Origin: Mayamaea pseudoterrestris
Taxonomy: Eukaryota
Length of the DNA stretch: 64,000 bases
Assembly: GCA_027923505.1 (NCBI GenBank)
Contig: BROI01000015.1
Location: forward strand, 682,001 to 746,000
Direction of reading: 5' to 3'
Part shown: one piece after another, positions 29,616-54,387 of the stretch
Numbering within the stretch: position 1 is the stretch's first letter
Layout: each line of letters opens with the position of its first letter
The notes under the pieces: model-generated
Seen by the model: the letters and a program-made list of their open reading frames with translations, nothing else
The model's database searches: none
What the model was told of the DNA's origin: nothing
Made by a program: the position numbers and the translations under genes

Positions 29616-32600
29616 TTACTGCTCTAACTGTGAGTTCTCCGATAATGGCAATGGATCGCAAGGGCCTTCCATTACTTCTCCGTCAAGAAATGGTCCCATG
29701 CCAAGCTTTGTTGATGCTTCCTCGTCCTTCCCATTCACCGCAGAAACTTCATTAACTAGTTCTTCCTCGCAAAATACGTCAGATACATCATTAGCAGCAT
29801 TGTCAGTATTCGACCGCCGTCGAGCGGCGAACCAGCGACGAGCACCGTTGACGATGAAGTATTCCCAGGCAGAAACTGCAATAGCGTTGGCAATCATAAT
29901 GCCCAGCAAACCTCGACGAAAGTCCGCGGGCATAACTGTCGTATTGAACGAGTTTTGGATTGGAACAGGCTCGATTGATGTGACCGCAGCAACTGCCCAA
30001 TCATTCATGCAATTGACGCGCCAAATGCAGCTGAAATGTCCCGGCACGAGCGTGATATAGAATTGCATGACAGTAAAAGCCGTCACAAAAGCCATAAACA
30101 CATAGTTGCGAAACCAATGTTGGCGCCATTCATAGCCAAAGTTAAAAGCAAAAGCGGAGCTAATATACTGGTATCCAGTGACTAGAAAGATAACTTCAGA
30201 CTCGTAGTTGTCACCAATTACCTGAACGTTCGACACGTCCTGCCCATCCCACTTGCGGCACTGCGTTCGGGAAGGAATGAAAAAAGTGTGTGAGGAAACT
30301 CTTGTACGAAAGAAAGTCTAAGGACAATGTACGTACTTGAAACCAATCCTGAGAAAACAGGTATGCGAGCGCACCGACGAGAAAGAGAAAGTTCAAACCT
30401 AGCACTCCCAGCACGCTAGTCATTGTGGCAGATCCAAACAAAGACGCAGTTGGCCGTGTTTTTGATAACTTCGACGCGCATCGAGCTAATGGGAGGGAGA
30501 AAGCCATGGTAATGACCCAAACACCATCCTGGAAGCACGAGAAAGAGGATGTTAGTTATAAACGGTTAGGTGATGGAGCATGGTGCGTCCAACGAATTGC
30601 CTTACAAAGAAAACCCAGCAATACTCTGTAAACGTTGTAGCAAAAAAGGCACTGATCAGTTGGTTGATAGTTTCAACGTTCCCGTATATCATCATGTATC
30701 TATACGCCGCCAAACTGTTCGTCAAGCTGCAGCGGCCTTCAAGAAGGACGTCAACCACTGATGTGATGGCCTTGTCGAGCGATGTGAACGGAGCTACCGT
30801 GCTGGCTTCCGCGTCACTTAAGGCAACCCCAACATGAGCGGTCTTTAGCGCTCCACAATCGTTACCTGTAAAGTAGTTTGCGAGTATGAATAAACGCAAC
30901 AACATCGCGGCAAAGGCAATCAAGAAAGCCGCAACTTACCGCCATCGCCGCACATTAGCGTAACGCGACCTAGCTCGTTGTAAGCGCTCACGATGGACAC
31001 TTTGTCGTACGGAGTGCAACGTCCATATACTCGTATGAAATCCATTAAGCGAGCTGCCTCCTTCGGATCTGCTGTCCTGAGTATGCCAAACGCCTGTCCA
31101 GATATGGCAAGTTCCGTTCCGGATTGTAAAAGTTCTTCAATGGGCGGACGAGTGCATTGCTCTCCTCGCAAGTTTGACCAATATAGTGATCCGGACTCGT
31201 CGCAGCTCCCGATAAGAATGCCGCAATCGGACCCCACAATTCCAGCTTCTCTGCCAATACAAATGCCTGTCAAGACACTGTCACCTGTGAGCATAACTGT
31301 CTTCACGCTACCGCTGTGCAAGTGACTAATCACGCCGGCTGTTTCAGGGCGTATAATGTTTTTGAAATCGACAGTCCCAATGAACGACAGAGAATTTTCA
31401 ATCTCGTCTCGAGTAACAGTAAGCGCGTCAATGGTAGCAGGTAGTTTCTTCATCGCCACAGAAATTTGATAGAGGCCAGCAATGGCAGCGTGTTGTAGAG
31501 CTTCGTCAAAATCGAATGGAAGGTTGTCCTCCATACACAGTTTCTTGATACTTTCTCCGCTACCCTTTACAAACGCAATGAGTGAATTATCTGAATCCTT
31601 TCGCACAAGAACAGATTGTGTCATGCGATGATGGTCGAAATCAAAATGGCGGACAATTGTAGCCGACTGCCCATTACAATCAGTCACTTTTCCAACCGCT
31701 CCGCTACTTGAGGTCACAATTGAACCGCTCTTCTCAAACATTACCTGATCGACGGGATTGCCCGCAAGTTTTCCGCCTTTTGTCATGCTCAACGTATGGC
31801 AGCTTCCCATCGCCAAGAAAAATTCAGATTCGACCCCGCTCCGAGCATTTGCAGCGACAAATTCTAACCCTTGTTTGGTCAACGTGCCCGTTTTGTCAAA
31901 ACAAGCAGTGTCGCACTTGCCGCACACAAGAATAGCTTCAGCATTGGTGCAGCTAATGCGCTTGCCAGCCAGTCTGTCGCTTGAGATGCCGACCGATACG
32001 GTAAACACAGTGGGAAGCAAGGGCGGCAACGCGGATGCGACGACAAACATTCCGTAGAACCAACTGTAGATGATCGTGTCCTTGATAAAGAAAACAACCA
32101 TCGCAAAGCCGAAAATGGCATAGAAACATAAGATTGAAATGACAATTGGCACTTCGACGTCAAACTTGAATTGATGCCGCTTGTAGGAGTAAATGTCGCG
32201 AATGAGCTCACCGCGAGCCGTGTAAGAAGCAGTTTGTGTGACGACAGCAACCGTTTTCTCTGTCTCGAGCACATTGGTGCCCGCCAAAATAGTGTGTCGC
32301 TTAAATTGGTTGGCACTGTAAACATTTTTACCATCTGCTTCATCGACAGGAGTCTTGAGCATTGGCGTTGCTTCGCCAGTCAGAGCACTCTCGTCCATTA
32401 GTATCGTTGAAGAGGCCACGACAACCATATCGCAATACGTCAAGCCTGGAGTGACTTCAACTACATCGCCTGGTACGAGTTCTTTCGGTGACACTTGGAT
32501 GACCTGGCCATCGCGGCGGATGCAGACTTCGCCGGTAATGTTGGTTATTTCGTACAATTTGCGCTCGTTGCGATATTGAAAGTAGCAAACTGTAAGTCCA

Positions 32601-33970
32601 CCCGTTGTGATGACAACTGTCCAAGTGAAAGCCATGTAATAGTAGTATAATGGGACCCAGGTCCAAACCATGAACAGCTGATATGTGTAAAAGGGCTTCA
32701 AAAATTCCTTGGTGATGATTTTGATGAGGTTTGGTTTGTCCATCTCGATCGCATTCGGGCCGACAATTTGACGCCGCGCGTCGGCTTCCTCATTCGTCAA
32801 ACCGCCTTGGACTTTACCAGCTGTCACAATGTCGGAAAGAGTCGTTCCAATCGAGTAGACTCCTGGTTTGAAGCGACCATCGTCCGAGTCAAAGTTGTAG
32901 TGCCGAAACCCAAAGACAAAGTAGCGCGAGCCTTCCGAGTTCGTCTGAATTACGCAAAAACGATAGGTGCCATTCCTTCCCTTCTTTTGACCAAAGTCAT
33001 CGACATCAGAAAAGATCAACGACATGATGCGCCCCATGGTGAGACGGACGTTAGCAAAGAGCAATCGCAGAAATGACATGTATCCGGAGTTAAACGTTTC
33101 CTCCGACTCTGCGGCTGCCTTGTGAATGCAAACGGCCACATGCGTTGCTCGATGCAGTTCACACCGTCGAAGGAACAAGCTCTTGATTGAGTAAGGCCAT
33201 TTGAGAGCGAACGAAAAGACAAAGAAAACCATCCACAATATCTCAAAGATTTTGAGCAAGTTTTCTTCATCCTCAAACTTTCCGCCAACGACTCCCGTCA
33301 GCAGCTCCTGCTGAATGTAGTATTGCACCGAGAGCCATCCGAGCAAAGCGTGCATGCCCAAGAGAGTCAAGCAGGTCCACCCATACAACAGGGATCCGAT
33401 TAAATGACGCCGGTATCCAGTTTGCCAGCTCGTTGCTTCTTCCTTGTCGACTTGCACATTGAGCGGCTGCACCGATCCCGATACAGGAGCAATTCGTTGA
33501 TTGTAGGCGCACCACGCAACAATACAAAGTGTCAAAAGGCTGATCCAAACGTAGAGAATGACAAAGACTGGTTCGCGCATGCTATACTTGTGCAGCAGCT
33601 CCTCCTCCGTCTCGCCGCATGTGGTTTCGTTATTGTACCATGGCCCGTACGTACTGAGACATGAATCATAGTATGAATCCACCTTGTGGCACGCCACGGG
33701 CGCACAATCGTACTGGCATGGACTCTCGAGCGAGGCATCGCAAGTGCTGCTGCAGCTTCCATCCTTGCAGAGCGTTTGATTCGCAGGGCAAAGCATTTCG
33801 TCTGGGCAATCTTGAGCCTTGGCGACGCAAACTTGCTTGCAGGTGGTGAAGGCTGGACAGTTAAAGGTTGGATCGACGGCATCTCCAAAATCTGCGTTGA
33901 CAACTGAGCGAGACGCTGTCAGCAGAATCAGCATCCAGCCGATCGACGGCTTGAGCGTTGAAAGGCACAT
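29616..33970 (-). CDS. P5-type (ATP13A-like) P-type ATPase with an N-terminal signal peptide and Cys-rich domain; introns 30866-30939, 30529-30605, 30261-30336
   Basis: ESALTGEATP, P5-type PPLLP, DKTGTLT phosphorylation site, VKGSGE, MLTGD, and MCGDGGND formed across an intron. Three GT-AG introns restore the frame (FF|DGVW, WFQ|CRKW). Confidence 0.92.
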
Positions 33971-34610
33971 GCTGGACGAGTCTCTTCTCTTGCGTCTCTT
34001 ACTCTCTGACTTTGACAAATCTGTCTCTTGCTCTTCAATCGCAAATCAACCAACGACTCAAGTTGTAGCTGCGTTATAGCAGCGTGAAGATGTGAAGGAT
34101 TGGAGCGACAAGATGCGACCGTTTTGCCCTGTCAACAAGCTTCAACTTCGCAGAATGACCTGAACCAATCTACGCCCCGACGAATGTATCCGAGCTTCAA
34201 CGGAAGTTTGTTGTCTGCATGGCGAAAGTCGTTCAACGAATGGCGGCATGCAAATGCTTTCGCGGTCGTGCCAAATCGGATTGGCCATAATTAAAATGTG
34301 AATGCCAGCTGCAGCCGGATTAAGCCTCATGACTCGATTCGCACATTCGCTGTCACACTTGCCGGTACTGTCACAAAAAGCAATGCATTGCTGCTTCACT
34401 GTACCACTTTAGCTCTATGCGAGTACGCTAACTCAAGCCATATCTCAAATCTACAATATGTAAAGCTAGATCTAAATTGTCAGTGACTTTTCTTTGTGCC
34501 TAGCATTGCTAGGTAGAATGCAAGAGAACATTGGAACAAATTTCGGGGACAAAATCTTGTCGATTCTGTGAATATTGCAACCTATAATTGGAAACTTCAG
34601 GTTAATTTAA

Positions 34611-37600
34611 AAGTATCACTTGCTACTTGAGGTGCACCACTAGCAGATCCAACAAGTTGTTGGATCTGCTCAGTCCTGTGGCATACATGGTGATGGATAC
34701 TGAGGTGCAACTGACCAACTTATGGCCCATCATGACAACAAACATGATATGAAAGATATGGGAGGGCTCACCAGGCAAGGCTGGTGATCCCTGCAGCCAA
34801 AATGGGAGCAGGGCTGGCACATTCAACCAGTTGTTGAATGTGCAGAGTCTCAGGGCATAGTGATGGCTTCCACATCCCAAAGAACAAGTCTATGAGTCCC
34901 ATGCACTGTTCAAGTCCATGTTTGTTGTATTACGGGGTCTGCAGGCCATTTTGGAGGTCTCACTTGCCACTTGAGGTGCATCGCTGGCAGATCCAACAAG
35001 TTGTTGAATCTGCTCAGTCTCACCATGGTGTACATGGTGATGGATACTATGGTGCAACTGACCCACTTATGGTCCATCATGACAACAAACATGATATGAA
35101 AGATATTGGAGGGCTCAGCAGGCAATGCTGGTGATCCCTGCAGCCAAAAAGGGAGCAGGGCTGGCACATTCAACCAGTTGTTAAATGTGCGGAATCTTAG
35201 GGCATAGTGATGGCTTCCACACCCCAAAGAACAAGTCTATGAGTCCCATTCACTGTTCCAGTCCAAGTTTGTTGTATTGTGGGTCTGCAGGCCATTTTGG
35301 AAGTCTCACTTGCCACTTGAGGTGCATTGCTGGCAGATCCAACAAGTTGTTGAATCTGCTCAGTCTCACCATGGCGTACATGGTGATGGATACTATGGTG
35401 CAACTGACCCACTTATGGCCTATCATGACAACAAACATGATATGAAAGATATTGGAGGGCTCAGCAGGCAATGCTGGTGATCTCTGCAGCCAAAAAGGGA
35501 GCAGGGCTGGCACATTCACCCAGTTGTTGAATGTGCGGAGTCTCAGGGCATAGTGATGGCTTCCACACCCCAAAGAGCAAGTCAATGAGTCCCATTCACT
35601 GTTCAAGTCCATGTTTGTTGTATTGTGGGTCTGCAGGCCATTTTGGAAGTCTCACTTGCCACTTGAGGTGCATTGCTGGCAGATTTAACAAGTTGTTGAA
35701 TCTGCTCAGTCTCACCATGGCGTACATGGTGATGGATACTATGGTGCAACTGACCCACTTATGGCCCATCATGACAACAAACATGATATGAAAGATATTG
35801 GAGGGCTCAGCAGGCAATGCTGGTGATCCCTGCAGCCAAAAAGGGAGCAGGGCTGGCACATTCAACCAGTTGTTGAATGTGCGGAGTCTCAGGGCATAGT
35901 GATGGCTTCCACACCCCAAAGAACAAGTCTATGAGTCCCATTCACTGTTCCAGTCCATGTTTGTTGTATTGTGGGTCTGCAGGCCATTTTGGAAGACTCA
36001 ATTGCCACTTGAGGTGCATTGCTGGCAGATCCAACAAGTTGTTGAATCTGCTCAGTCTCACCATGGCGTACATGGTGATGGATACTATGGTGCAACTGAC
36101 CCACTTATGGCCCATCATGACAACAAACATGATATGAAAGATATTAGAGGGCTCAGCAGGCAATGCTGATGATCTCTGCAGCCAAAAAGGGGGCAGGGCT
36201 GGCACATTCAAGCAGTTGTTGAATGTGCCGAGTTTCAGGGCATAGTGATGGCTTTCACACCCCAAAGAACATGTCTATGAGTCCCATTCACTGTTCAAGT
36301 CCATGTTTGTTGTATTGTGGGGTCTGCAGGCCATTTTGGAAGTCTCACTTGCCACTTGAGGTGCATCGCTGGCAGATCCAACAAGTTGTTGAATCTGCTC
36401 AGTCTCACCATTGCACAGGTGGCAATAGATACTGAGGTGCAACTGACCCACTTATGGCCCATCATGACAACAAACATGATATGAAAGATATGGGAGGGCT
36501 CAGCAGGCAATGCTGGTGATCCCTGCAGCCAAAAAGGGAGCTGTGCTGGCACATTCAACCAGTTGTTGAATGTGCGGAGTTTCAGGGGCATAGTGATGGC
36601 TTCCACACCTAATTGGACAAGTCTTTGAGTCCCATTCACTGTTCGAGTCCATGTTTGTTGTATTTTGGGGTCTGCAGGCCATTTTGGAAGTCTCACTTGC
36701 CACTTGAGGTGCATTGCTAGCAGATCCAACAAGTTGTTGAATCTGCTCAGTCTCACCATGGCGTACATGGTGATGGATACTATGGTGCAACTGACCCACT
36801 TATGACCCATCATGACAACAAACATGTTATGAAAGATATTGGAGGGCTCAGCAGGCAATGCTGGTGATCCCTGCAGCCAAAAAGGGAGCAGGGCTGGCAC
36901 ATTCAACCAGTTGTTGAATGTGCGGAGTTTTCAGGGCATAGTGATGGCTTCCACGCCCCAATGAACAAGTCTATGAGTCCCATTCACTGTTCCAGTCTAT
37001 GTTTGTTGTATTGTGGGGTCTGCAGGCCATTTTGGAAGTCTCACTTGCCACTTGAGGTGCATCGCTGGCAGATCCAACAAGTTGTTGAATCTGCTCAGTC
37101 TCACCATTGCACAGGTGGCGATAGATACTGAGGTGCAACTGACCCACTTATGGCCCATCATGACAACAAACATGATATGAAAGATATGGGAGGGCTCAGC
37201 AGGCAATGCTGGCGATCCCTGCAGCCAAAAAGGGAGCAGGGCTGGCACATTCAACCAGTTGTTGAATGTGCGGAGTTTCAGGGGCATAGTGATGGCTTCC
37301 ACACCTAAATGGACAAGTCTATGAGTCCTGTTCACTGTTCCAGTCCATGTTTGTTGTGTTGTGGGGTCTGCAGGCCATTTTGGAAGTCTCACTTGCCACT
37401 TGAGGTGCACCACTGGCAGATCCAACAAGTTGTTGAATCTGCTCAGTCTCACCATGGTGTACATGGTGATGGATACTATGGTGCAACTGACCCACTTATG
37501 GTATATCATGACAACAAACATGTTATGAAAGATATTGGAGGGCTCAGCAGGCAATGCTGGTGATCCCTGCAGCCAAATAGGGAGCAGGGCTGGCACATTC

Positions 37601-40600
37601 AACCAGTTGTTAAATGTGCGGAGTTTCAGGGGCATAGTGATGGCTTCCACACCTAAATGGACAAGTCTTTGAGTCCCATTCACTGTTCAAGTCCATGTTT
37701 GTTGTATTGTGGGGTCTGCAGGCCATTTTGGAAGTCTCACTTGCCACTTGAGGTGCATTGCTAGCAGATCCAACAAGTTGTTGAATCTGCTCAGTCTCAC
37801 CATGGCGTACATGGTGATGGATACTATGGTGCAACTGACCCACTTATGGTATATCATGACAACAAACATGTTATGAAAGATATTGGAGGGCTCAGCAGGC
37901 AATGCTGGTGATCCCTGCAGCCAAATAGGGAGCAGGGCTGGCACATTCAACCAGTTGTTGAATGTGCGGAGTTTTCAGGGCATAGTGATGGCTTCCACAC
38001 CCCAAAGAACATGTCTATGAGGCCCATTCACTGTTCCAGTCTATGTTTGTTGTATTGTGGGGTCTGCAGGCCATTTTGGAAGTCTCACTTGCCACTTGAG
38101 GTGCATTGCTAGCAGATCCAACAAGTTGTTGAATCTGCTCAGTCTCACCATTGCACAGGTGGCGATAGATACTGAGGTGCAACTGACCCACTTATGGTAT
38201 ATCATGACAACAAACATGTTATGAAAGATATGGGAGGGCTCAGCAGGCAAGGCTGGTGATCCCTGCAGCCAAAAAGGGAGCTGTGCTGGCACATTCAACC
38301 AGTTGTTGAATGTGCGGAGTTTCAGGGCATAGGATGGCTTCCACACTTAAATGGACAAGTCTATGAGTCCCATTCACTGTTCCAGTCCATGTTTGTTGTA
38401 TTGTGGAGTCTGCAGGCCATTTTGGAAGTCTCACTTGCCACTTGAGGTGCATTGCTAGCAGATCCAACAAGTTGTTGAATCTGCTCAGTCTCACCATGGT
38501 GTACATGGTGATGGATACTATGGTGCAACTGACCCACTTGTGGCCCATCATGACATGATATGAAAGATATTGGGAGGGCTTAGCAGGCAATGCTGATGAT
38601 TCCTGCAGCCAAAAAGGGAGCAGGGCTGGCACATTCAACCAGTTGTTGAATGTGCGGAGTTTCAGGGCATAGTGATGGCTTCCTCACCTAAATGGACAAG
38701 TCTTTGAGTCCCATTCACTGTTCAAGTCCATGTTTGTTGTATTGTGGGGTCTGCAGGCCATTTTGGAAGTCTCACTTGCCACTTGAGGTGCATTGCTAGC
38801 AGATCCAACAAGTTGTTGAATCTGCTCAGTCTCACCATGGCGTACATGGTGATGGATACTATGGTGCAACTGACCCACTTATGGTATATTATGACAACAA
38901 ACATGTTATGAAAGATATTGGAGGGCTCAGCAGGCAATGCTGGTGATCCCTGCAGCCAAATAGGGAGCAGGGCTGGCACATTCAACCAGTTGTTGAATGT
39001 GCGGAGTTTCAGGGGCATAGTGATGGCTTCCATACCTAAATAAACAAGTCTTTGAGTCCCATTCACTGTTCAAGTCCATGTTTGTTGTATTGTGGGGTCT
39101 GCAGGCCATTTTGGAAGTCTCACTTGCCACTTGAGGTGCATTGCTAGCAGATCCAACAAGTTGTTGAATCTGCTCAGTCTCACCATGGTGTACATGGTGA
39201 TGGATACTATGGTGCAACTGACCCACTTATGGCCCATCATGACAACAAACATGATATGAAAGATATTGGAGGGCTCAGCAGGCAATGCTGGTGATCCCTG
39301 CAGCCAAAAAGGGAGCAGGGCTGGCACATTCAACCAGTTGTTGAATGTGCGGAGTTTTCAGGGCATAGTGATGGCTTCCACACCCCAAAGAACAAGTCTA
39401 TGAGTCCCATTCACTGTTCCAGTCCATGTCTGTTGTATTGTGGGGTCTGCAGGCCATTTTGGAAGTCTCACTTGTCACTTGTGGTGCATTGCTAGCAGAT
39501 CCAACAAGTTGTTGAATCTGCTCAGTCTCACCATTGCACAGGTGACGATAGATACTGAGGTGCAACTGACCCACTTATGGCCCATCATGACAACAAACAT
39601 GTTATGAAAGATATTGGAGGGCTCAGCAGGCAATGCTGGTGATCCCTGCAGCCAAAAAGGGAGCTGTGCTGGCACATTCAACCAGTTGTTGTTTGTGCGG
39701 AGTTTCAGGGCATAGGATGGCTTCCACACGTAAATGGACAAGTCTATGAGTCCCATTCACTGTTCCAGTCCATGTTTGCTGTATTGTGGGGTCTGCAGGC
39801 CATTTTGGAAGTCTCACTTGCCACTTGAGGTGCATTGCTAGCAGATCCAACAAGTTGTTGAATCTGCTCAGTCTCACCAGCGACAGGTGATACTGGAGTG
39901 CAACTGACCAACTTATGGCCCATCATGACAACAAACATGATTATAAAAAATTTGTGAGGGCTCAGCAGGCAATGCTGATGATCCCTGCAGCCACAAAGGG
40001 AGCAGGGCTGGCACATTCAACCAGTTGTTGAATGTGCTGAGTCTCAGGGCATAGTGATGGCTTCCACACCAAAAAAAAACAAGTCTATGAGTCCCATGCA
40101 CTGTTAAAGTCCATGTTTATTGTATTATGGGGTCTGGAGGCCATTTTGGAAGTCTCACTTGCCACTTGAGGTGCACCGCTGGCAGATCCAACAAGTTGTA
40201 GGGTTGGCTCAGTCTCACCATTGCATACATGGTGATGGATACTGAGGTGCAACTGACCATCTTATGGCCCATCATGTCAACAAACATGATATGAAAGATA
40301 TTGGGAGGGCTCAGCAGGCAATGCTGATGATCCCTGCAGCCACAAAGGGAGCAGGGCTGGCACATTCAACCAGTTGTTGAATGTGCGGAGTGTCAGGGCA
40401 TAGTGATGGCTTCCACGCCCCAATGGACAAGTCTATGAGTCCCTTTCACTGTTACAGTCCATGTGCGTTGTATTATGGGTCTGCAGGCCATTTTGGAAGT
40501 CTCACTTGCCACTTGAGGTGCACTGCTGGCAGATCCAACAAGTTGTAGGGTCTGCTCAGTCTCACCATGGCTTTCAAGGTGATGGATACTGAGGTGCAAC

Positions 40601-42425
40601 TGACCATCTTATGGCCCGTCATGACAACAAATATGATATGAAAGATATTGGAGGGCTCAGCAGGCAATGCTGATGATCCCTGTAGCCACAAAGGGAGCAG
40701 GGCTGGCACATTCAACTAGTTGTTGAATGTGCGGAGTCTCAGGGCATAGTGATGGCCACTACACCCAAAAGAACAAGTCTATGAGTCCCATTCTCTGTTA
40801 CAGTCCATATTTGTTGTATTATGGGGTTTGCAGGCCATTTTGGAAGTCTCACTTGCCACTTGAGGTGCACTGCAGGCAGATCCAACAAGTCGTAGGGTCG
40901 GCTCAGTCTCACCATGGCTTTCAAGGTGATGGATACTGAGGTGCAACTGACCAACTTATGGCCTATCATGACAACAAACATGATATGAATGATATTGGAG
41001 GGCTCAGCAGGCAATGCTGATGATCCCTGCAGCCACAAAGGGAGCATGACTGGCACATTCAACCAGTTGTTGAATGTGCGGATTCTCAGGGCATAGTGAT
41101 GGCTTCCACACCCCAATGGACAAGTCTTTGAGTCCCAATCACTGTTAAAGTTTATGTTTATTGTATTATGGGGTCTGGAGACCATTTTGGAAGTCTCACT
41201 TGCCACTTGAGGTGCACTGCTGGCAGATCCAACAAGTTGTAGGATCTGCTCAGTCTCACCATAGCATACATGGTGAAGGATACTGAGGTGCAACTGACCA
41301 TTTCATGGCCCATCATGACAAAAAACATGATATGAAAGATATTGGAGGGCTCAGCAGGCAATGCTGATGATCCCTGCAGCCACAAAGGGAGCATGGCTGG
41401 CACATTCAACCAGTTGTTGATTGTGCGGAGTCTCAGGGCATAGTGATGGCTTCCACACCTACAAGAACAAGTCTATGAGTCACATTCACTGTTACAGTCC
41501 ATGTTTGTTGTATTATGGGGTCTGCAGGCCATTTTGGAAGTCTCACTTGAGGTGCACTGCTGGCAGATCCAACAAGTTGTAGGGCTGGCTGAGTCTCACC
41601 ATGGCATACACGGTGATGGATGCTGAGGTGCAATTGACCAACTTATGGCCCATCATGACAATAAACCTATTTGAAATATATTGGTGGGCTCAGCGAGCAA
41701 TGCTGATGATCCCTGCAGCCACAAAGGGAGCAGGGCTGGCACATTCAACCAGTTGTTGAATTTGCAGAGTCTCAGGGCATAGTGATGGCTTCCACACCCA
41801 ATTGGTCAAGTCTATGAGTCCCATTCACTGTTCAAATTTATGCTTGTTGTATTATGGGGTCTGCAGGCCATTTTGGAAGTCTCACTTGCCACTTGAGGTG
41901 CACTGCTGGTAGATCCAATAAAGTATTGGATCTTCTCAGTCTCACCATGGCATACATGGTGATGGATACTGAGGGGCAACCGACCAACTATGGCCCATCA
42001 TGACAACAAACATGATATGAAAGATATTGGAGGGCTCAGCTGGCAATGCTGATGATCCCTGCAGCGAAAAGTGGAGCAGGCTGGCACATTCAACCAGTTG
42101 TTGAATGTGCGGAGTCTCAGGGCATAGTAATGGCTTCCACACCCAATTGGAAAAGTCTTTGAGTCCCATTCACTGTTCAAGTTAAGGTTTGTTGAATCAT
42201 GGGGTCTGGAGGCCATTTTTAAAGTCTCACTTGCCACTTGAGGTGCACCGCTAGCAATTGTTGTATCTGCTCAGTCTCACCGTGGCATACATGGTGAAGG
42301 ATACTGAGGTGACCAATGATTGAATTGGGGCAATCAGCCGGGTGCTGATGTGCCCTGCAGCCAAAGGAGAGGCTGGCCATTCCGCAGTGGTTGCATGTGC
42401 GGAGTCTCAGGGCATGTGATGCTTC
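34611..42425. repeat. Tandem array of ~22.5 copies of a ~346-348 bp unit, each a diverged dimer of ~169+177 bp with several palindromes
   Basis: The anchor GGGCATAGTGATGGCTTCCAC (or close variants) recurs about 23 times, from ~34853, 35200, 35546, 35892 to ~42120 and 42410. Copies become more degenerate toward 42.4 kb. Confidence 0.97.
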
Positions 42426-43186
42426 ACTAAAGGAAATCACCCGGAAACTCCGGGTGCTGACCAGTCATCGATTCACTGTCTGCAGGTTGTTGATCAGGGG
42501 TGAACAGGTGGGACAAACAAACAAACAAGCTGGCTAGACAACAGGGTTGGCAAGCAAGCAAGCAAGAGGAATGAGAGGCAGATTGGCCAGGTTGTCTGCT
42601 CATTGATGTCTCCATGATGTCGTCCCGAACCATCGATGATGTGTGTATCACTCAGAGTGTACTCATAAGGTATCTTATGAGTGTCCCCAAGGCAGTCTCC
42701 TCTAAACATCCGCCCTGAGCCGAACAATCAGCACGGGTGCTGATTGCCCTCCGTCGCCCAGCTGTTTCTTTCCGCGGTGCATGGCTGTATCCAGTGCAGC
42801 TGCCCCTCAGGAGGCAGCGATGTCCATGTGGTTGGCAAGAAATCACCCGGAAATCCGGGTCCCTGAGCAACCACGTCATCGATGATGACTGGCAGCGAGT
42901 CCTGTCTTGACAGGAGTCGCCTCAACCCACACGACAACAGCTAGCTGGATGGACGTCCCGCCACACAACAACAAAGGCCGTGTGGTGAGAACCACGAAAA
43001 GAAACAAGGAAGAAAGAAAGAAGAACGAGAAGAGAAGGAAACCCAGTGGCTGAGATCCTCCCGCTCCCCACGTGATGGGGGAGTAGCTAAAGGCGAGGAG
43101 CGCACAAACCCGTCGCGCACACGTGCGCGCGAAAGATCCGGATGCAAATCTTTAGCTATGACCCGTAATTCTATAACTGAAATGTC

Positions 43187-44677
43187 TTATAATAAAATGG
43201 CGCCTTCAATGGCCTTTAAGGTCAGGCGTCCAACCTCGTGGGTACTTTCCCGTAGGTAGTGTTGTACCGACGGCGGAGACCAGCGTAATCGAAAGGCAAT
43301 CTCCTCAATGGAGAGGCCCGCATTTTGCAAGGCAACTGCAGCTGTGACTCGATTTGAATGAGCTACAATGCTGTTGATATTCTGGCGCAGGAAGTGTTTC
43401 GGGTCAGGGTATGCTCCAACAACCACTTGCCGCATGACTTTAATGATATCGCGCGACTGCAAGTACTCGTAAGCGCCAGTGGCATCTTTGCGAAAGACCC
43501 CAAGCGGCTCACGTATTGCTTTCTTGTGTAGTTGTTGGGCGCGGGAGAGGATGGAAAGACTCGCGGCAATAGGGCAAATGAAAGGATGGCCCGACCGACG
43601 ATACCGACGAATAGTGAAGTTGTTTTGGCTCTTATCGTATCGAAAACGTAGGCGCAACTCGTATGCCTGGCTGCCATCTTTCAGGAGTGCGCTATGGCTA
43701 ATGAGCACGTTGTGTTTAGAGTAGAAAGTAAAATCCAAGTCGACAAAGGCAAGTGGTTGGTGCGCCCATTCGCCCGCATCTTGGGTTGGCGGTACCTTGC
43801 TGAAGCAACCGCGTTTCGCTGTAGTCTGTGCGTACTCGTTTGCCCTGGAACCGGTAAAGGCCCCGAGGCAAGTCCAGTCAAAGACTGCTGCCTCCAAATC
43901 AAGCGCATGACGAACGTCTGTGTGGATGAGGCGCTTGAGTTTGGAGTAGAGGAACGCAAACATACTGTGGGTGTATGGCTCGCGCTTTTCCCGCGCCTGT
44001 TGCCATTTGCGGCGACTGGACAAGATATCATCTAAAACGGGATGAAGGCCACTGCCACGAGGGTCATTGATGGAGAAGCGCCGATTGAGTGCAGTTTCAA
44101 GTAGTGCATGCGCCGCTCTGAGGTATCCACTGAGCGTCTTCACCTTGAGGGGCTGTGGTTCATCAGTGCTCTGTCGGCGCAGCGCCCGTTTGTCCACTGC
44201 CAAGGATGTCTCGCCAGAGGAGACAGCATATAGATAGCTGGCTAGGACCGGGATTTCTTGCCCCGGTGCGATTGACGCGAAAAGACTGGTCGTTGAATCC
44301 TGCTTTAAGACTCCATTTTCCAAAATGCGAGGCGCGCTGGTCAAACGTGCGATCGTTGTGGGACCGAATGTCTCCTCGTTGGCGGTGTTGTTGATCACTG
44401 ACGAGATAACTGTAAGCAGCTTGGACTCGACCAGGAAGACCTTGCAATTGGCTAACACCTGCGTTTCCGGCGAGATAACGGATGCCCCCGCGAGAGTCGA
44501 CGCCGTGAAGCGAGACAGTCTGTCGGCCTCCACATTGTCCTTGCCTGAATGTGTGTTTGCCTGGATGCGGAGAGATAATGTACTGTAAGTGGCAATGTGC
44601 ATGAAAGAAATTGTGCCAGGCGGCGGAAGATGAGATCCTTGAGGAAACGCCTTTGGCTGAAACGTTCTAGCATGCAC
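43187..44677 (-). CDS. Tyrosine recombinase (DIRS-type) preceded by an RNase H C-terminal remnant
   Basis: Full catalytic set: R (FTGSRANEY), K (RYDKS), HxxR (AHSNR), W (RLRW), Y (QHYLR), plus CPIAA. The upstream HSGKDNVEADRLSR matches the retroelement RNase H ending. Confidence 0.88.
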   Translation of the reverse strand: MHARTFQPKAFPQGSHLPPPGTISFMHIATYSTLSLRIQANTHSGKDNVEADRLSRFTASTLAGASVISPETQVLANCKVFLVESKLLTVISSVINNTANEETFGPTTIARLTSAPRILENGVLKQDSTTSLFASIAPGQEIPVLASYLYAVSSGETSLAVDKRALRRQSTDEPQPLKVKTLSGYLRAAHALLETALNRRFSINDPRGSGLHPVLDDILSSRRKWQQAREKREPYTHSMFAFLYSKLKRLIHTDVRHALDLEAAVFDWTCLGAFTGSRANEYAQTTAKRGCFSKVPPTQDAGEWAHQPLAFVDLDFTFYSKHNVLISHSALLKDGSQAYELRLRFRYDKSQNNFTIRRYRRSGHPFICPIAASLSILSRAQQLHKKAIREPLGVFRKDATGAYEYLQSRDIIKVMRQVVVGAYPDPKHFLRQNINSIVAHSNRVTAAVALQNAGLSIEEIAFRLRWSPPSVQHYLRESTHEVGRLTLKAIEGAILL

Positions 44678-44928
44678 AGTCGTGCGGCGCTTGCAGGGTT
44701 TGTTTCGATGTCTTGCTCATCCTTCTTTATTTGCTCGATGGTGGTTTCGTAGCGCGCTCGAGAAACAACATGCTCAGGCGCTTGATTGCGGTGCTCCCAT
44801 GCTTGAAGAAAAGATTGATAGCCTTCGTAGGTGAATGAGTCTGATCCGTAACTTTGACTGCTTGGGTATGCATCTGAATCGTAAGTTGCGTCGTCTGAAT
44901 TGGTTTCTTCATCGCCAGGATTGCTCAT
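44452..44928 (-). pseudogene. In-frame continuation of the gag ORF past one TGA, then frameshifted relative to the RNase H/YR frame
   Basis: ATG at 44928 lies 30 nt past the 44959-44961 stop in the same frame; the ORF overlaps the YR ORF in a different frame. Confidence 0.5.
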
Positions 44929-44958
44929 GATGATTTCGACTCGCTCTGTATCCCAGAC

Positions 44959-47508
44959 TCAAAGACCAGTGTATTGGTAGTAGCGGTCTCGCGTTGAGTC
45001 AATTGCTTCTTGATGCGTAAAGGCGTGTGGCATGGCTATGTGCTCAAGAAAGAATTCTTGTAGATCTGCAAACATCACTTTTACGGCGTCTGATAGCTCG
45101 TACAGTGGAGGATTGATGAACAGGACGCTTTGCAAAACGTGGAATGGCGGTAGATCAGTCGAGTTGGCTTGTGACGGAATGTTGTTTGGAATTCTTGGAG
45201 CAAAGGTTGGATACAAGTGCTCGACTTCTTTTAGCTCGTCTGCTGTAAGGAAGTCTTTGGGTAGCCAGTCTCCTCGCCATTGCGCAAAGCTTGTCGCTAC
45301 AAGTTCTTCTACACTTTCTTCTTCTTTCAATTCAATTGGAGGACTTGTTGTTGGAGTTGAATCCTTGTCGGCGCTGCAAGTTGTGACGTTGTCGGTGCGC
45401 TCATGTGTGTCGCATTCGTTGGCGTTTGTGGTTGTTGGCTCAAGATTGGTGGCTTCAGTTGTGTCGCTGCTCGTTGTGACGTTATTGGTGCTTTGCGTAG
45501 CGTCGTAGCCGTGGTAGGAATCGTTAAGATTGTTTGCTTGCTCTTCAATTGATGAGTGCGCTTGTTGCTCTGATTTACTTGGCTCGTCTTGTTCGTGAAA
45601 TGGCAGACCCTTCCCGTCTTCTTGCTTCGTTTGCTCAAGTGTTTCAATGTTTTGAATTAAAGTGCTGAAGTGTTTCCGTTCTTGCTCGGTTGGAGTCTTG
45701 TTGTTGACAAATTCTTCTTCAAAGTCGCTTTCTTCTTCATCACTTGTGCTTGGGTCGCCGCATATGGATGCCCAACTGCGTCCATTGAGATTTGACGATG
45801 GAAGATTTGGCTTTGGCTTTGGTGACTCGCTCGTTGTGGACGACTTTGTTAAAGGCACCAATTCGACGGCTTGCTTCTTGTTGGTGGAGCTTGACGTTGT
45901 TCTTGCGCGTTTTGTTCGAGTTGTTGGTGGTGCTGGAGGCTGCTCGATTGATGAATCGTCTTCCGATGAATAGTCTTTAATCTGATGTGGCTGTAGACCG
46001 CGCCAATTGGTTTGTGGATATAAAGGCGACGGTGTTGGAGCTGCAGGAGTGCGAGTAGGGAGTGCTGGATAAGTTTCATCAACTAAGTCGGCATGTATGA
46101 AGGCAAATTCGCTCCTTGAGTTTGTAGAAGGATAACGGCGGCTTAAAGAGGAACGTTGCGAAGAGGAGCGATGCGATCGCTGAGTCAACTGAAGGGCTTC
46201 GTGTACTGCTGCAAGTCCTTGTTCAAGTAGTAATGGTGCTTGACGAGGCACTTGCTCGCGCATGATGGTTCGCGGGTGAGGCTCTTGACGATGGTTTTGA
46301 TGCTCAAGTTGACGCTGCGGTTGCTCTTGATGATCTCGACGATGATAATCATTGTCTCTTGGTTGGTCTCTTGTGCACTCGTTGTTGCGATTCTGGCGAT
46401 AACGACGGTCTTCTTGTTGATCATCTTGAGGAAGACGACGATCTGGCTGTCGATTTGAATTGCGAGGACGCTCTCTTGGTCGTTCTAAACCCCGCTCTTG
46501 TTGCTCTCGTGCTTCTTCATCTTCCAATTGACGACGAGCTTCAATTGACAGGCGAGTGTTCCATCCGCGAGGCCGACGATGGGCGTTTTCGACTCGTTCA
46601 AAGCAGTCGGCGCTTCGATGATACGGTTGATGGCAAAGGTAGCATTTGAATGATGGTGGATTTCGCGTGTTGTTATAGTTGGTTTGCGGGCGTTCATTGC
46701 GAGTTGGCGGCGCTTGATGCTGACGAGTGTTTTGTTGGCGTGAAGTTTCTTGTTGCGGCGGTTCTGGTTGTGCTGCATATAGAACAATCTCGTTGACTCC
46801 TTGTATTAAAGCTTCTTCATCTTCTGCTGCGTAAATCGTTTGGTAGATAGTCGACACGACGCCTTCCATTTCGGTCTTGGTCAGGGCGCGTTGCTTGGTC
46901 TTTTGCTCTTGCGCTAGAGCGAGGCAGTATTGAGGCGGCAGCTTGTTCATGAGTGTAGCCATCAGGTCTTCTGCAAGAAGCGTTTGGTTGAACTTGATGG
47001 CTTGCGATTGCATGAGATCAATGAGGTCTTGAGGATTTGCTGTTGGTCGTTCGAGCTTGAGATTTTGAATGCTTCGTCGGTAAAGTGTTGGCGCCATGAA
47101 CTTGTCTGGAGAAAATTTGATTTCCAATGCGTTGATAACTTTCCAAGCTTCGCCTCCTGGATACTCTGTTGATTCTGCTCCAACTAGATGGTCGTTCAGC
47201 TCGGGGAATGGCGACAATGCGATGGAAAGCATTTGCATGAGCGTTTCATTCTGCTTGCGTTCCGCTTGTTTGTTTCGAATGATTTGGATTTCATCTGCCG
47301 TTGCGTTAGCTGCAGGATCAGTAATGACTTCATTCTGAGTAGCTGGTAAGTGCTCGGGTCGACTGCCTCTTATAGGACGGCGGCAGCCTGCAATTCTTGC
47401 ATGATTCTTGAACTGGTTGAACCATGATGGAAAGGCTTCGATGGTGTTGGTTATCTTTGGCGTTTTGTAGAGTGCATTCATAGTGATGTCTTCTTGTTGG
47501 TCGGTCAT
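44959..47508 (-). CDS. Gag-like protein with a CCHC zinc knuckle and a long low-complexity tail
   Basis: CYLCHQPYHRSADC knuckle. The N-terminal FPSWFNQFKNHA...YPGGEAWKVINALEIKFSP resembles Copia-type gag. Confidence 0.75.
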   Translation of the reverse strand: MTDQQEDITMNALYKTPKITNTIEAFPSWFNQFKNHARIAGCRRPIRGSRPEHLPATQNEVITDPAANATADEIQIIRNKQAERKQNETLMQMLSIALSPFPELNDHLVGAESTEYPGGEAWKVINALEIKFSPDKFMAPTLYRRSIQNLKLERPTANPQDLIDLMQSQAIKFNQTLLAEDLMATLMNKLPPQYCLALAQEQKTKQRALTKTEMEGVVSTIYQTIYAAEDEEALIQGVNEIVLYAAQPEPPQQETSRQQNTRQHQAPPTRNERPQTNYNNTRNPPSFKCYLCHQPYHRSADCFERVENAHRRPRGWNTRLSIEARRQLEDEEAREQQERGLERPRERPRNSNRQPDRRLPQDDQQEDRRYRQNRNNECTRDQPRDNDYHRRDHQEQPQRQLEHQNHRQEPHPRTIMREQVPRQAPLLLEQGLAAVHEALQLTQRSHRSSSQRSSLSRRYPSTNSRSEFAFIHADLVDETYPALPTRTPAAPTPSPLYPQTNWRGLQPHQIKDYSSEDDSSIEQPPAPPTTRTKRARTTSSSTNKKQAVELVPLTKSSTTSESPKPKPNLPSSNLNGRSWASICGDPSTSDEEESDFEEEFVNNKTPTEQERKHFSTLIQNIETLEQTKQEDGKGLPFHEQDEPSKSEQQAHSSIEEQANNLNDSYHGYDATQSTNNVTTSSDTTEATNLEPTTTNANECDTHERTDNVTTCSADKDSTPTTSPPIELKEEESVEELVATSFAQWRGDWLPKDFLTADELKEVEHLYPTFAPRIPNNIPSQANSTDLPPFHVLQSVLFINPPLYELSDAVKVMFADLQEFFLEHIAMPHAFTHQEAIDSTRDRYYQYTGL

Positions 47509-47516
47509 GGTTGCGA

Positions 47517-49520
47517 TTAGAATGAGTAGTAAAAGTTTTGGCTATTGGTCGGACGTTGATAGCTAACGTTGTTGTCGGCAAATGGAGATTGACGGTTTGG
47601 GGTAGCTAAACGTTGCTGACGTGGCCAATTGAGTTGCTGATGTGACGGAGTTTGAAAACGTGAACGAGCGTGGAACTGCTGAGCGTGTTGATCGCGACGA
47701 TGGACACGTTGTTGATTTGTCACTTGTCGATTTCGTTGAGCTTGTAAGTGCAGCTGTCGTTGTTGTTGATTAAGAAGATGATTTAAACGAGTTACTTGAG
47801 CTTGAAGACTGTTTATATCGCGTGTATGATGAGTTGTAGTGTTGCGCGTGTCGTTGATGCGAGGCTGGACTCGAAGGGTTGGATTGGAGGTTCGGTTTTG
47901 CTGTCGGGTTGGCGTAACGATTCGATTCGCTTGTTGCTGTCTTAAACGTTGCTGGTAAGGACGATTGCTGTTCGTTTCGTTGCGTCGTTGATTGCGTCTT
48001 TGACTAACAGTGATTCGATTGCGTTGAAGATTGATCGAAGCTTGTTGCGTTGTTGATGCGCGCTCTTGACTTGCTTGTCGCTGTCTGTTTCGTTGTTGAA
48101 GAAGTGCTTGACGACGGTCTGCGACGCTTTGAACTGCTGCGATGCGAGATGCTTCTTGGTAAGTGCTTGAAACGTTCTGTGAGCGAAGAGTTTGTTGCGA
48201 TGGTCTCGTGTCTTGGCGATGCGCTTGTCTAACTGGCGCTCGATTTGCTTCTTGTTGGCGAATTGAATTGATTGATCGGCAAGTATGCGTCGTGCTTGTT
48301 GGCAATGTCTCTAATTGCTCGTTGACTGGCGATGAGTTGCTGCTTGGCGAAGGTACGTGTGTTTGCGTATTGGCGATGCACACAGAACAAGCGCACGTCG
48401 TCTCTGTGTTTATATCTGGTACTTCAGAAAGTCTTTGTAAGTCTTGACGTCTGTTTTCTTCGTCCTTTTGAAGCAGGAAACGGGTCTTCTTGAGGAAGTA
48501 AAGAGTTACTGGATGCGATAGGCCTTTTGCTTCGAATTCGTCTCGTTCGTTGCGCAAAGTGTCTTCTAGTAGAAGAATCTCCTTCTCTTCGGGCGTGAAA
48601 GGATTGTTCGGTCGGCAAAGATCAAGGCTCTTGTAAAAGTCTGCTCGCTTTTTGTCAAGGAAGATTAATGACTTTGGAGAAAAGATGAAGGCTTTGAGAA
48701 AGGGTACGTTACTGTCGATGTAACTTGTTTCGGCGTCTGATTGTGCGGTTGACTTGGCAACTTTTGCTAATCCTTCTTCTTTAAATTCTTCCGCAATGTG
48801 ACTGTAAAACACTTCGTTGTTGGCTAGGTCTTTAAACTGATTGAAGCGCTTCTCACAAGCTTGTTCTGGGTCGATTGGCTTTGATGAAGGCGGCGGTAGA
48901 ATACCTCGAAAGATCCAGGCGAAACGCTTGTCTTCTTCGTCCCAAGTCCAAGGGGTTGGAGGAGAGACGCGCGGGTCGTAACGATACCAGCCGTATCGAA
49001 CGTTCGGGTGGTTGTAGACTGCTTTCTCTTCGTCAGTGGCGGGTCGTCCAGTTAGATGCCAGTCTTCGGGGTTGTTTGGTGAAAGACGACGAAGGCTGTC
49101 GCGCGGGTTGGACTCGATTGGAAGGCGCTCTCGTTCTTGATTGCTTGCAATTTGGTCGGCGGCGGTAAGTCGGATTACTGGGCGGCCTTCTGGAGCGACC
49201 GATTGGAGACTTGAAGGGTTGAACTCGTGTAAAGTAATGTTGATGAAGAGGATGACGACTTGTAGAAGGCGTCGTGAAGAATTAAAGACTTGGCGGCTTG
49301 TGTTGAAGCGGCGAAGGAAACTGTAAAGAAGGCGCGTGACTGGTGGAGTGAGAGGCGACTTGGAAAGAGTGCTCGGCAGACTAGGTAAAGTAGTTCTGCT
49401 CAACTGATGGAGACTTGAAATCTGCTCGACGACGTTGGCCTTGATCAAACGCTTGATCCGACTCGAGGTAAACTGAAAGATAAAGGCAAAAGGGTCGCTT
49501 GTAGGCTTGCTCTTGCTCAC
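47517..49520 (-). CDS. ORF1 of the YR element; Q/R/N-rich C-terminal half; function unknown
   Basis: 667 open codons (GTG start in the ORF track) ending 8 nt before the gag ATG; same strand as gag. Confidence 0.55.
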   Translation of the reverse strand: MSKSKPTSDPFAFIFQFTSSRIKRLIKANVVEQISSLHQLSRTTLPSLPSTLSKSPLTPPVTRLLYSFLRRFNTSRQVFNSSRRLLQVVILFINITLHEFNPSSLQSVAPEGRPVIRLTAADQIASNQERERLPIESNPRDSLRRLSPNNPEDWHLTGRPATDEEKAVYNHPNVRYGWYRYDPRVSPPTPWTWDEEDKRFAWIFRGILPPPSSKPIDPEQACEKRFNQFKDLANNEVFYSHIAEEFKEEGLAKVAKSTAQSDAETSYIDSNVPFLKAFIFSPKSLIFLDKKRADFYKSLDLCRPNNPFTPEEKEILLLEDTLRNERDEFEAKGLSHPVTLYFLKKTRFLLQKDEENRRQDLQRLSEVPDINTETTCACSVCIANTQTHVPSPSSNSSPVNEQLETLPTSTTHTCRSINSIRQQEANRAPVRQAHRQDTRPSQQTLRSQNVSSTYQEASRIAAVQSVADRRQALLQQRNRQRQASQERASTTQQASINLQRNRITVSQRRNQRRNETNSNRPYQQRLRQQQANRIVTPTRQQNRTSNPTLRVQPRINDTRNTTTHHTRDINSLQAQVTRLNHLLNQQQRQLHLQAQRNRQVTNQQRVHRRDQHAQQFHARSRFQTPSHQQLNWPRQQRLATPNRQSPFADNNVSYQRPTNSQNFYYSF

Positions 49521-50201
49521 TCAATACTCCGCTTGTTGCTGCAGAGCTTTGGAAATTCGAGGTTGACAGAAAGGGCTTGAAGAAATCCGCGTCCGGTTTT
49601 GTTCAATGCTTTGGAAACTTGGTAAAAAGATCTTGGTTCAATCGGCAAGTAATTACTTTGCTTGAGATCCAAGATGAAGGTCCGTACGGAAGTAGGGAGA
49701 AAAGACGGTTTAAACGCTAAAAGACTGGGGAAACTTTGAATCTATTGTTAGTAGATCCTCTAGAATGAGACGAAAGTGAAGCGGTCGATTTCGCATCCAA
49801 GAGTGGCTTCTCATTCATACGTATGTATATTGTCTACCGGTCGTGTCATTTTGTACTGGCCATCCCGTAGGCGGGATGGCTCTCGTCCGTCTACAGAATT
49901 GGCAGTATAGTCTTCACTGCTGGTAGTGTTTGCACGGCTTCGCTCTGTAGAGGCCCAACATTCGCTGTGTACGCCGGTTCCAGTATTCGATGTACCTGCG
50001 GTAGTCTTTCTACGGTTGTCAGTCGTGAATTCTTCGGGTACGGTGAAGTGTGTAGGGTTTGGGCCAGTGGCTGACTTTCTACTCTCGCCGTCGTAGGAGT
50101 GTGGTCGTGAACGGGATGTTCCGTGTCTTGGTGCCGCTGAGACCGTGTCGATGTCCTTTTCAATGTTGCTTTGTTCGTCGGCCAAAACGGGGATCCCAGC
50201 A

Positions 50202-50390
50202 GTTTGCACTTAACCACGTAAGCTTGCAGACTGACGCAAGCTCTTCTTGCAATTCAAGTTGAATCGCACCTTGTTGCTTTCTTTGGACCGTTTTGGCTTC
50301 TTGCGGGTTACCTCAGTCCACTCATCGTTAGCTAACTCATCCTCATCCTTAAGTCGGTCCGAGCACCGTGAAGACTCGCTATTCACAACA
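50202..50390 (-). repeat. Truncated 3' LTR (189 bp)
   Basis: Matches 55624-55812 except 2 adjacent substitutions seen (TTTGGACC vs TTTTAACC); similarity ends abruptly at 50202. Confidence 0.9.
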
Positions 50391-54363: not shown

Positions 54364-54387
54364 CCAAGGATCCTCGTCCTCCGAGTC

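Follow-up and report, generated by a model that had tools for sequence, protein, structure and literature searches.

A 348-bp tandem array beside a fragment of a probable Ngaro-like tyrosine recombinase retrotransposon in the diatom Mayamaea pseudoterrestris and its possible origin from terminal repeats

A stretch of 64,000 nucleotides from the diatom Mayamaea pseudoterrestris (contig BROI01000015.1 of assembly GCA_027923505.1, positions 682,001 to 746,000 of the forward strand; hereafter the window, to whose numbering all coordinates refer) contains a long array of non-coding tandem repeats and, close to one end of this array, a gene encoding a tyrosine recombinase (YR). A preliminary description of this DNA took the recombinase to be intact and suggested that it builds or shuffles the array by repeatedly integrating or excising small circles, an arrangement that would recall an integron or a shufflon. 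Here, the array, the YR gene and the retroelement to which this gene belongs are characterized computationally, and several possible origins of the array are weighed. The coordinates of the features under discussion are collected in Table 1.

The array and the recombinase gene

Tandem Repeats Finder places the array at positions 34611-42311, with a period of 348 bp, 22.3 copies and 91% matches, and a blastn search with the unit consensus resolves it into 22 full units that are 339-348 bp in length and 89.6-98.3% identical to the consensus. When a profile built from these 22 units is run against the flanks with nhmmer, the sole match is a degenerate unit at the YR-proximal end of the array (E = 1.5e-34); extension of the array past position 34613 or into the spacer that separates it from the YR gene is not significant, and the consensus finds no further copy by blastn in the rest of the 64-kb window. 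The earlier estimate of approximately 22.5 units of about 346 bp is therefore borne out, the array consisting of 22 full units with a length of about 348 bp and a single degenerate one, and so is the distance of about 750 bp between array and recombinase gene, the YR stop codon (43187) lying 762 bp from the last base of the array (42425).

All 23 units are homologous to one another, and the consensus is matched on one strand only. Similarity among the units climbs with distance from the YR gene: the central units are 94-98% alike, while the YR-proximal units (39811-42219), together with the first unit, are 85-93% alike. At least three unit subfamilies are interspersed along the array, and the best partner of a unit is found at lags of two to four units and more, an irregular higher-order pattern. 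An Rfam scan of positions 33900-45000 returned no match at E <= 0.1. The possibility that the array encodes a repetitive protein was raised by its period, which is a multiple of three (348 bp corresponding to 116 codons), and by minus-strand open reading frames (ORFs) of 103-212 residues within it. Such a reading is extremely improbable and is rejected here because substitutions among the units show no bias with respect to codon position (143, 145 and 134 by position; p = 0.78), a trimer of the consensus contains 10-14 stops in each of its frames, and unit length is variable.

Each unit does carry two related dyads, designated A and B, as had been noted in the preliminary description. Dyad A is the least variable segment of the unit, its mismatch rate of 0.015 (median 0.056) being the lowest among 320 windows of 27 nucleotides; dyad B is conserved at the level of an average 27-mer, and of the six most YR-proximal units, five retain its right arm only in decayed form (40152-41540). 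With respect to the internal organization of these dyads, dyad B, where perfect, reads as a 13-1-13 palindrome that lacks an asymmetric spacer, so that the 11-5-11 division proposed earlier is only one possible reading among several. A symmetric change, CAAC/GTTG to CAAT/ATTG, keeps the palindrome in the unit at 41879, and all other dyad variants break the pairing. The two 48-bp segments that bear the dyads lie 177 bp apart and are approximately 80% alike, and the remainder of the two half-units shows no recognisable relatedness.

Folded as a single strand, one unit contains at least five hairpins and reaches z = -4.85 as DNA and z = -4.94 as RNA, with none of 100 shuffled sequences being as stable. 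Perfect dyads with arms of at least 9 bp are rare outside the array (four in 56 kb, with a mean of 1.35 in shuffles), and two of these four fall within the 761-bp spacer. Together, the rarity of perfect dyads outside the array and a folding of the unit that exceeds that of shuffled sequences indicate that the dyads are not chance features. Neither dyad A nor dyad B occurs elsewhere in the 64-kb window within five substitutions, and a search for dyad A in a collection of viral contigs gave no match.

The YR gene itself is found on the minus strand as an ORF of 471 residues (43187-44602). The ATG at 44602 opens only a fortuitous frame, and the conserved frame is split by one extra T in a T4 run at approximately 44280-44283, with the N-terminal part being encoded in the other frame. 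In public sequencing runs, contigs that lack one base at 44280 account for all of the depth in run X1 (two contigs) and for 28 of 41.5 in run X2, so that either in-frame copies of the YR gene exist or the window contains a homopolymer error. Relatives of the recombinase number 166 at E <= 0.001 among 8000 scored candidates, and the only longer relatives found are four M. pseudoterrestris proteins (P0121-P0124), whose YR parts are 59-79% identical to that of the window and the best of which has 1864 residues.

Several lines of evidence bear on the identity of the protein. Residues R253, K324, H415, R418 and Y449 are invariant in all 30 aligned relatives and W441 is present in at least 90%, in agreement with the full R-K-HxxR-W-Y set reported previously. 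The profile built from the family hits Cre in the catalytic C-terminal part (E = 0.0015), and an AlphaFold2 model (mean pLDDT 76.3) retrieves Cre as its top Foldseek match (3crx_A, E = 1.4e-5) along with others, for a total of 24 at E <= 1e-3; among the matches listed, Cre/Tre are followed by Tn1549 integrase, XerA and XerH. The Pfam family PF00589 stays below its cut-off on this ORF (13.0 versus 27.1 bits, E = 0.089), covering the C-terminal 48 residues only, and phmmer finds no match to the YR in PDB. Judged by its catalytic residues and predicted fold, the window protein is a genuine tyrosine recombinase.

The sequencing runs also inform the abundance of the repeat. In runs X1 and X2, 63-80 distinct contigs were found per single unit variant, for example at 42066; as this is more variant contigs than the 22 units of the array can give, the unit is present in further copies. 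A contig joint from 42724 to 41995, seen in X1 and X5, sets a piece of the spacer between units and thus reflects another arrangement. Summed contig word depth, which is not a copy number, is 317,348 on the unit, 4,773-10,657 on positions 42441-43002 and approximately 1,000-1,400 on the YR in X1, and 13,063, 341-717 and 7-74, respectively, in X2, values that may be taken as a hint that both unit and spacer exceed the YR gene in number, the spacer less markedly. Runs X4 and X5, which belong to the same study as X1 and bear other organism labels, contain small shares of this DNA at very low depth, with some pieces free of differences; carry-over and true presence are indistinguishable in these two runs, and nothing is drawn from them concerning other species. 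Taken together, the locus presents head-to-tail, homogenised, non-coding units, subfamilies, diverged edges and further copies beyond it, as satellite DNA does, and the interspersed subfamilies, diverged edges and non-coding units are the marks of an ordinary satellite under unequal exchange.

Table 1. Features of the array, the YR element and their neighbourhood in the window
Feature	Positions	Strand	Remarks
Full array units, 22 x 348-bp non-coding tandem repeat	34613-42219		339-348 bp each; satellite
Dyad A, example: GCACATTCAAC-CAGTT-GTTGAATGTGC	35856-35882		exact form in 14 of 22 units; varies less than any other 27-mer of the unit
Dyad B, example: GCAGATCCAAC-AAGTT-GTTGAATCTGC	36025-36051		exact in 14 of 22 units
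Degenerate last unit (unit positions 3-261)	42224-42425		YR-proximal array end; 68% over 261 columns
R2, direct-repeat copy across the boundary between last unit and spacer	42331-42498	-	8-3-8 hairpin at 42438-42456
Spacer, 3' non-coding region of the YR element	42426-43186	-	perfect dyad at 42661-42682; AAG-rich low-complexity stretch near 43000
R1, older copy of R2, 394-416 bp nearer the YR	42725-42914	-	perfect 9-4-9 dyad at 42725-42746
YR core-binding and catalytic part, 373 residues plus stop	43187-44308	-	79% identical to the last 373 residues of the best M. pseudoterrestris protein
Conserved YR N-terminal part, other frame	44280-44576	-	about 95 residues; found by tblastn
ORF2 remnant, 26 residues ending in NVEADRLSR	44504-44581	-	likely reverse transcriptase/RNase H tail
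849-residue ORF	44959-47508	-	Ty1/copia-type gag in first ~320 residues, plus zinc knuckle; separate from YR element
Ty1/copia retrotransposon, complete-looking	50202-55812	-	189-bp long terminal repeats (LTRs), 98.9% alike

Relatives of the element and its classification

A metagenome scan with the YR alignment identified 79 loci (L001-L079), and full-length relatives among them are 8-10 kb long. In six of these (L049, L079, L015, L044, L062 and L042) the recombinase is accompanied by an ORF1 of approximately 1060-1290 residues and an ORF2 of approximately 940-976 residues, and the YR ORF overlaps the end of ORF2. The named ESM Atlas clusters nearest to ORF2 carry RVT_1 or RT_RNaseH (scores 0.94-0.97), and the motifs FVDD, DAS and NVEADALSR were read by eye in the ORF2 alignment. 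Within the window, the short remnant listed in Table 1 aligns with positions 829-854 of the 941-position ORF2 profile of the relatives (hhalign, E = 6e-5). Everything upstream of this ORF2 tail, which is to say ORF1 and nearly all of ORF2, is absent from the window, residues 1-1405 of the 1864-residue M. pseudoterrestris protein have no match there by tblastn, and the window copy is thus one without a 5' end. The window YR is a 3' fragment, truncated and frameshifted, of a probable Ngaro-like YR retrotransposon, and the earlier designation of the gene as intact accordingly falls away.

Placement of the element within the YR retroelements follows from its architecture. Pfam detects no methyltransferase in the relatives, self-comparisons of the relatives contain no long inverted repeats, and none are found in positions 42250-50400 of the window. 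There is no room for a methyltransferase between ORF2 and the YR, which points to the Ngaro/VIPER type of YR retroelement, a type described as defined without a methyltransferase domain (PMC4157794). Similarly, the four Ngaro types described from Cafeteria burkhardae share with the present family the order ORF1, ORF2, YR, the overlap of the YR with the end of ORF2, the direct repeats downstream of the YR with a period of a few hundred base pairs, and the occurrence of solo or extra modules (PMC8547959). Unlike those elements, which are reported to match PF00078, PF17919 and PF00589 (PMC8547959), the three ORFs of this clade are not seen by Pfam, either in L001-L079 or in P0121-P0124; as a consequence, automated annotation calls them hypothetical proteins and overlooks the elements. 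The window copy differs further from Ngaro in that it lacks ORF1 and ORF2 and in that its 3' module is present approximately 23 times and not twice.

Two other assignments were considered and rejected. A Crypton, a DNA transposon encoding a YR only, is incompatible with the ORF2 tail directly upstream of the window YR and with the three-ORF structure of the relatives, and a DIRS1-like element would have inverted terminal repeats, which are found neither here nor in the relatives, and a methyltransferase, for which there is no match. The earlier suggestion of a DIRS-class element is thus upheld insofar as the YR belongs to a retroelement family, and given up with respect to the features specific to DIRS1-like elements. 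DIRS-1 of Dictyostelium is likewise a YR retroelement, described as enriched in repeat-rich centromeres and as having a cis-acting internal repeat region that is essential for retrotransposition, but it differs from the element studied here in possessing inverted terminal repeats, an internal complementary region and a methyltransferase-like domain (PMC7192593). The TATE and VIPER elements of kinetoplastids resemble the present family as YR retroelements with split direct repeats (PMC6681497). Ngaro elements have been annotated in the genome of the diatom Chaetoceros muelleri (bioRxiv 10.64898/2026.04.27.720831), and DIRS/Ngaro-like elements have been reported in Ectocarpus (PMC3145265).

The DNA downstream of the YR in the relatives is of particular relevance to the array. 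Repeats were counted in the 43 loci whose available downstream DNA reaches 1 kb or more, a pair being scored when at least 80 bp long and within 2.5 kb 3' of the YR, and were compared with 47 upstream regions comprising twice as many bases. A direct-repeat pair is present 3' of the YR in 15 of the 43 relatives and in one of the 47 upstream regions. Spacing of these 3' repeats is 115-657 bp (349-657 bp in 12 of the 15) and the distance from the stop codon to the start of the first copy is 42-1133 bp; the values in the window, a 348-bp period and a start 272-762 bp after the stop, are within the range of the relatives. Ngaro elements have been described as having the structure A1-[ORFs]-B1A2B2, with solo AB repeats also known (PMC8547959), and the 3' repeat pair of the relatives is the B1-A2-B2 block of split direct repeats as in Ngaro. 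ORF1 is preceded by two full 3' repeat copies in both L042 and L077, which fits the order B1-A2-B2-A1 in a tandem or circular assembly. The L015 contig holds more than one copy of the element, with a period of 9793 bp, and the contigs of L042, L049 and L079 have matching ends; these four may represent head-to-tail copies, circles, or collapsed repeats and other assembly effects of terminal repeats.

Palindromes are a further property of these 3' zones. Perfect dyads are tenfold denser in the 3' zone of the relatives, with 49 in 98.5 kb versus 14 in 298.9 kb (mean of 2.0 in shuffles). One of these dyads, TACGAGCTC-NNN-GAGCTCGTA, recurs in five loci at 45-70 bp after the first repeat copy; its 9-bp arms are constant while its 3-nt spacer varies (GCA, TGA, CCA, GCA and CTA in L001, L007, L011, L014 and L071, respectively), a pattern that, at the level of sequence, is as expected of a conserved hairpin or protein site. 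Additionally, L073 and L077 carry two 9-5-9 dyads in each repeat. Because the relatives link this family to dyad-bearing direct repeats located 3' of the YR, the presence of a YR beside palindrome-rich repeats in the window is probably not a coincidence.

Origin of the array

The spacer between the YR gene and the array contains evidence that may connect the two. Downstream of the YR stop, read along the element's own strand, come 272 bp of non-coding DNA, the repeat copy R1, approximately 226 bp, the repeat copy R2 and, finally, the array. R1 and R2 align with a score of 82, whereas shuffled sequences have a mean score of 20 and a maximum of 35, and none of 300 reaches 82. The last array unit, which R2 overlaps, is approximately 80% identical to the other units over 83-92 bp. 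Since R1 copies R2 and R2 overlaps the last array unit, the periodic structure begins 272 bp after the YR stop.

The reading we favour, if tentatively and with somewhat less than even confidence, is that the array is the (A+B) 3' terminal-repeat module of a Ngaro-like YR retrotransposon that was amplified to a satellite by general recombination. According to this proposal, a full-length element would consist of ORF1, ORF2, the YR, a few hundred non-coding bases and then a direct-repeat pair with hairpin-forming dyads, and the B1-A2-B2 block of the window would correspond to R1 and R2, approximately 400 bp apart, continuing as the 23 units of 348 bp. The (A+B) module, duplicated already in every element, may have been amplified via unequal crossing-over or replication slippage, and would then have been homogenised centrally and spread as a satellite. 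The dyads would be inherited cis elements, presumably hairpins or protein-binding sites serving the replication cycle of the element, and the adjoining YR gene would be a remnant of that element as opposed to an engine dedicated to the array.

Tandem repeats in the 3' untranslated regions of plant Ogre/Tat elements give rise to satellites. More generally, the derivation of satellites from transposable elements is well documented (PMC3648361, PMC9659126), and tandem repeats derived from maize centromeric retrotransposons have been described (PMC3648361). The array would resemble such satellites as a retroelement repeat that is amplified head to tail, homogenised, more numerous than its parent, divided into subfamilies and diverged at its edges. 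It would differ from them in its parent, which here would be a YR (Ngaro-like) element; in the titles and abstracts of the literature searched, no satellite from Ngaro or DIRS terminal repeats is reported.

Several observations weigh against an origin of the array from the terminal repeats of the element. The unit profile, run with nhmmer, recovers the last unit only and fails to detect R1, so that homology between spacer and unit rests on R2 bridging both. R1 and R2 are far more diverged than the YR ORF would suggest for an element's own B1 and B2, and the two could equally be read as old edge units of a pre-existing satellite. A 5' A1 copy was looked for by local alignment of the spacer with positions 49400-50201 and 55813-56600, and the scores are at chance level. 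With respect to the relatives, those with DNA all have at most 54% protein identity, and comparison of the unit and spacer with their DNA yields only a low-complexity match. Furthermore, the other 28 of the 43 relatives have no repeat pair, and the loci with a pair include near-duplicates from sister samples (L001/2, L007/8, L040/42 and L073/77); as four pairs of loci are near-duplicates, the independent cases number approximately 11. Lastly, Pfam recognises no reverse transcriptase and no RNase H in ORF2 of the relatives, even at E = 10, the ORF2 profile has only chance-level matches in PDB, and the AlphaFold2 model of ORF2, with a pLDDT of 37, is unusable; because these three approaches gave nothing, the label of retrotransposon rests on the Atlas lead, the motifs read by eye and the architecture.

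Many of the same observations would be accommodated if the array were an abundant, independent 348-bp satellite with no ancestry in the YR element, and if a fragment consisting of the ORF2 tail, the YR and about 270 bp had come to rest at the degenerate end of it, whether through a general accumulation of transposable elements along satellite borders or through a target preference of this family. This alternative ranks second and is unlikely in our estimation. The array borders an island of transposable elements that comprises the YR fragment, a gag-only copia-type ORF, a copia element and a duplicated 2.8-kb repeat; the YR fragment is truncated at its 5' end and could be truncated at its 3' end as well; units at an edge are expected to be the most diverged, as is seen; the divergence of R1 and R2 is too great for recent copies of B1 and B2; and the runs hold many more unit variants than the array does. 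In addition, YR retroelements that target repeats have been described, namely TATE at telomeric repeats (PMC6681497) and DIRS-1 at centromeres (PMC7192593). TATE forms tandem clusters inside a simple repeat, and some of its copies are said to show 'more complex patterns of repetitions', but in TATE whole elements are repeated within telomeric hexamers, whereas here a 348-bp module is repeated (PMC6681497). An independent satellite would leave the element without the 3' repeats that 15 of 43 relatives have at this very place and period, and would not account for a richness in dyads of spacer and array that mirrors the 3' zones of the relatives. Array units are, moreover, found on one side of the YR fragment only, local alignments beyond the transposable-element island being at chance level.

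An alternative closer to the preliminary description is that an intact YR acting in trans excises and re-integrates 348-bp (A+B) mini-circles, with the dyads as candidate core sites. The 3' repeats of the family characteristically contain dyads, no other 27-mer of the unit is as well conserved as dyad A, the change in the unit at 41879 is symmetric and keeps the palindrome, run contigs contain in-frame versions of the YR, and some relatives have multimer- or circle-like contigs, such as would arise from a circle integrating into a resident copy. We nevertheless regard this mechanism as improbable. Both boundaries of the array lie approximately 30 bp outside any dyad, and the 22 units include no A-by-B hybrids and no length steps of 171 or 177 bp; dyad B is only averagely conserved and decays in older units, and the remaining variants break pairing. 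The directionality of YR core sites comes from an asymmetric spacer, and a 13-1-13 dyad B without one would give recombination no direction. The five or more hairpins of the unit are at least as suggestive of single-strand structure as of a single protein site, interspersed subfamilies are an outcome of unequal crossing-over, the matching contig ends of relatives are possibly assembly artefacts of terminal repeats, and the local YR is a truncated and frameshifted remnant. The state of the local YR, the position of the array ends and the missing length steps, together with the satellite-type units and the extra variants in the runs, leave the original idea that the adjoining YR builds or shuffles the array without support. 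The combined proposition, that the dyads are the DNA sites of Ngaro-type YRs and that excision and re-integration of mini-circles by the YR generated the satellite and still resizes it, appears to us very doubtful.

In integrons, the cassettes are genes unrelated to one another and each has an attC site of its own, and in shufflons inverted sites flank invertible segments. The locus is like both in that a YR gene adjoins an array punctuated by imperfect palindromes, and unlike both in that its 23 units are homologous, non-coding and of a single orientation. With no distinct cassettes and no inverted segments or sites, neither the integron-like nor the shufflon-like description can be retained.

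Surroundings and significance

The array is situated between ordinary genes and the transposable-element island, given that an ORF for a P-type cation-transport ATPase (1016 residues, 30920-33970, minus strand; E1-E2_ATPase and Cation_ATPase_N) starts approximately 640 bp from the distal end of the array. On the other side, beyond the YR fragment, the 849-residue ORF follows a Q-, N- and R-rich frame that runs for 667 residues from stop to stop, the two occupying positions 44959-49520 on the minus strand. An exhaustive search identified 118 relatives of the 849-residue ORF, and those that were scanned carry Retrotran_gag_2, zf-CCHC, Pol_BBD and RVT_2; a word-based search with this ORF found nothing, and Pfam found nothing useful at E <= 0.01. 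Neither the 849- nor the 667-residue frame is similar to ORF1 of the YR relatives (hhalign), and neither has matches in the 79 loci (tblastn) or among Mayamaea proteins (blastp). This gag-type region has no pol and no LTR pair and recalls the gag-only 'LGA' elements reported in Ectocarpus (PMC3145265).

The copia element that follows encodes a gag with a zinc knuckle (54388-55401), a Pol_BBD domain (53395-54360), and an integrase and RVT_2 (50210-53458), and no clear 5-bp target-site duplication was found for it. Just before its LTR, the segment 49747-50201 includes a perfect 9-4-9 dyad, GCCATCCCG-TAGG-CGGGATGGC, at 49859, and has a summed contig depth in the runs above that of the adjoining ORFs. 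A segment of approximately 2.8 kb is present twice, at 55813-58590 and 61248-64000, with 97.8% identity; the first copy begins exactly where the copia LTR ends and the second leaves the window. Each copy contains paired ORFs (209 plus 324 or 289 residues) without a Pfam match, and the segment may constitute another repeat family.

With regard to annotation, the YR gene at this satellite edge should be recorded as a remnant of a transposon and not as a host recombination system. The window and 78 relatives define a widespread, Pfam-invisible, Ngaro-like clade that is present in a diatom (Mayamaea) and in metagenomes and is characterized by dyad-rich repeats 3' of the YR. For YR retrotransposons (DIRS, Ngaro, PAT and VIPER), recognition and joining of DNA are largely inferred and, to our knowledge, no recombination site has been defined; the dyads of the relatives provide concrete candidate cis sites that are open to testing. 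If a YR did resize the satellite, then site-specific recombination, and not unequal crossing-over, would drive the expansion of a satellite in a eukaryote, and the array would offer a naturally occurring substrate, present in many copies, with which the chemistry of YR retrotransposons could be worked out. On the reading favoured here, the locus is a likely case in which the terminal-repeat module of a YR retroelement gave rise to a satellite, and as such would extend the routes by which transposable elements become satellites.

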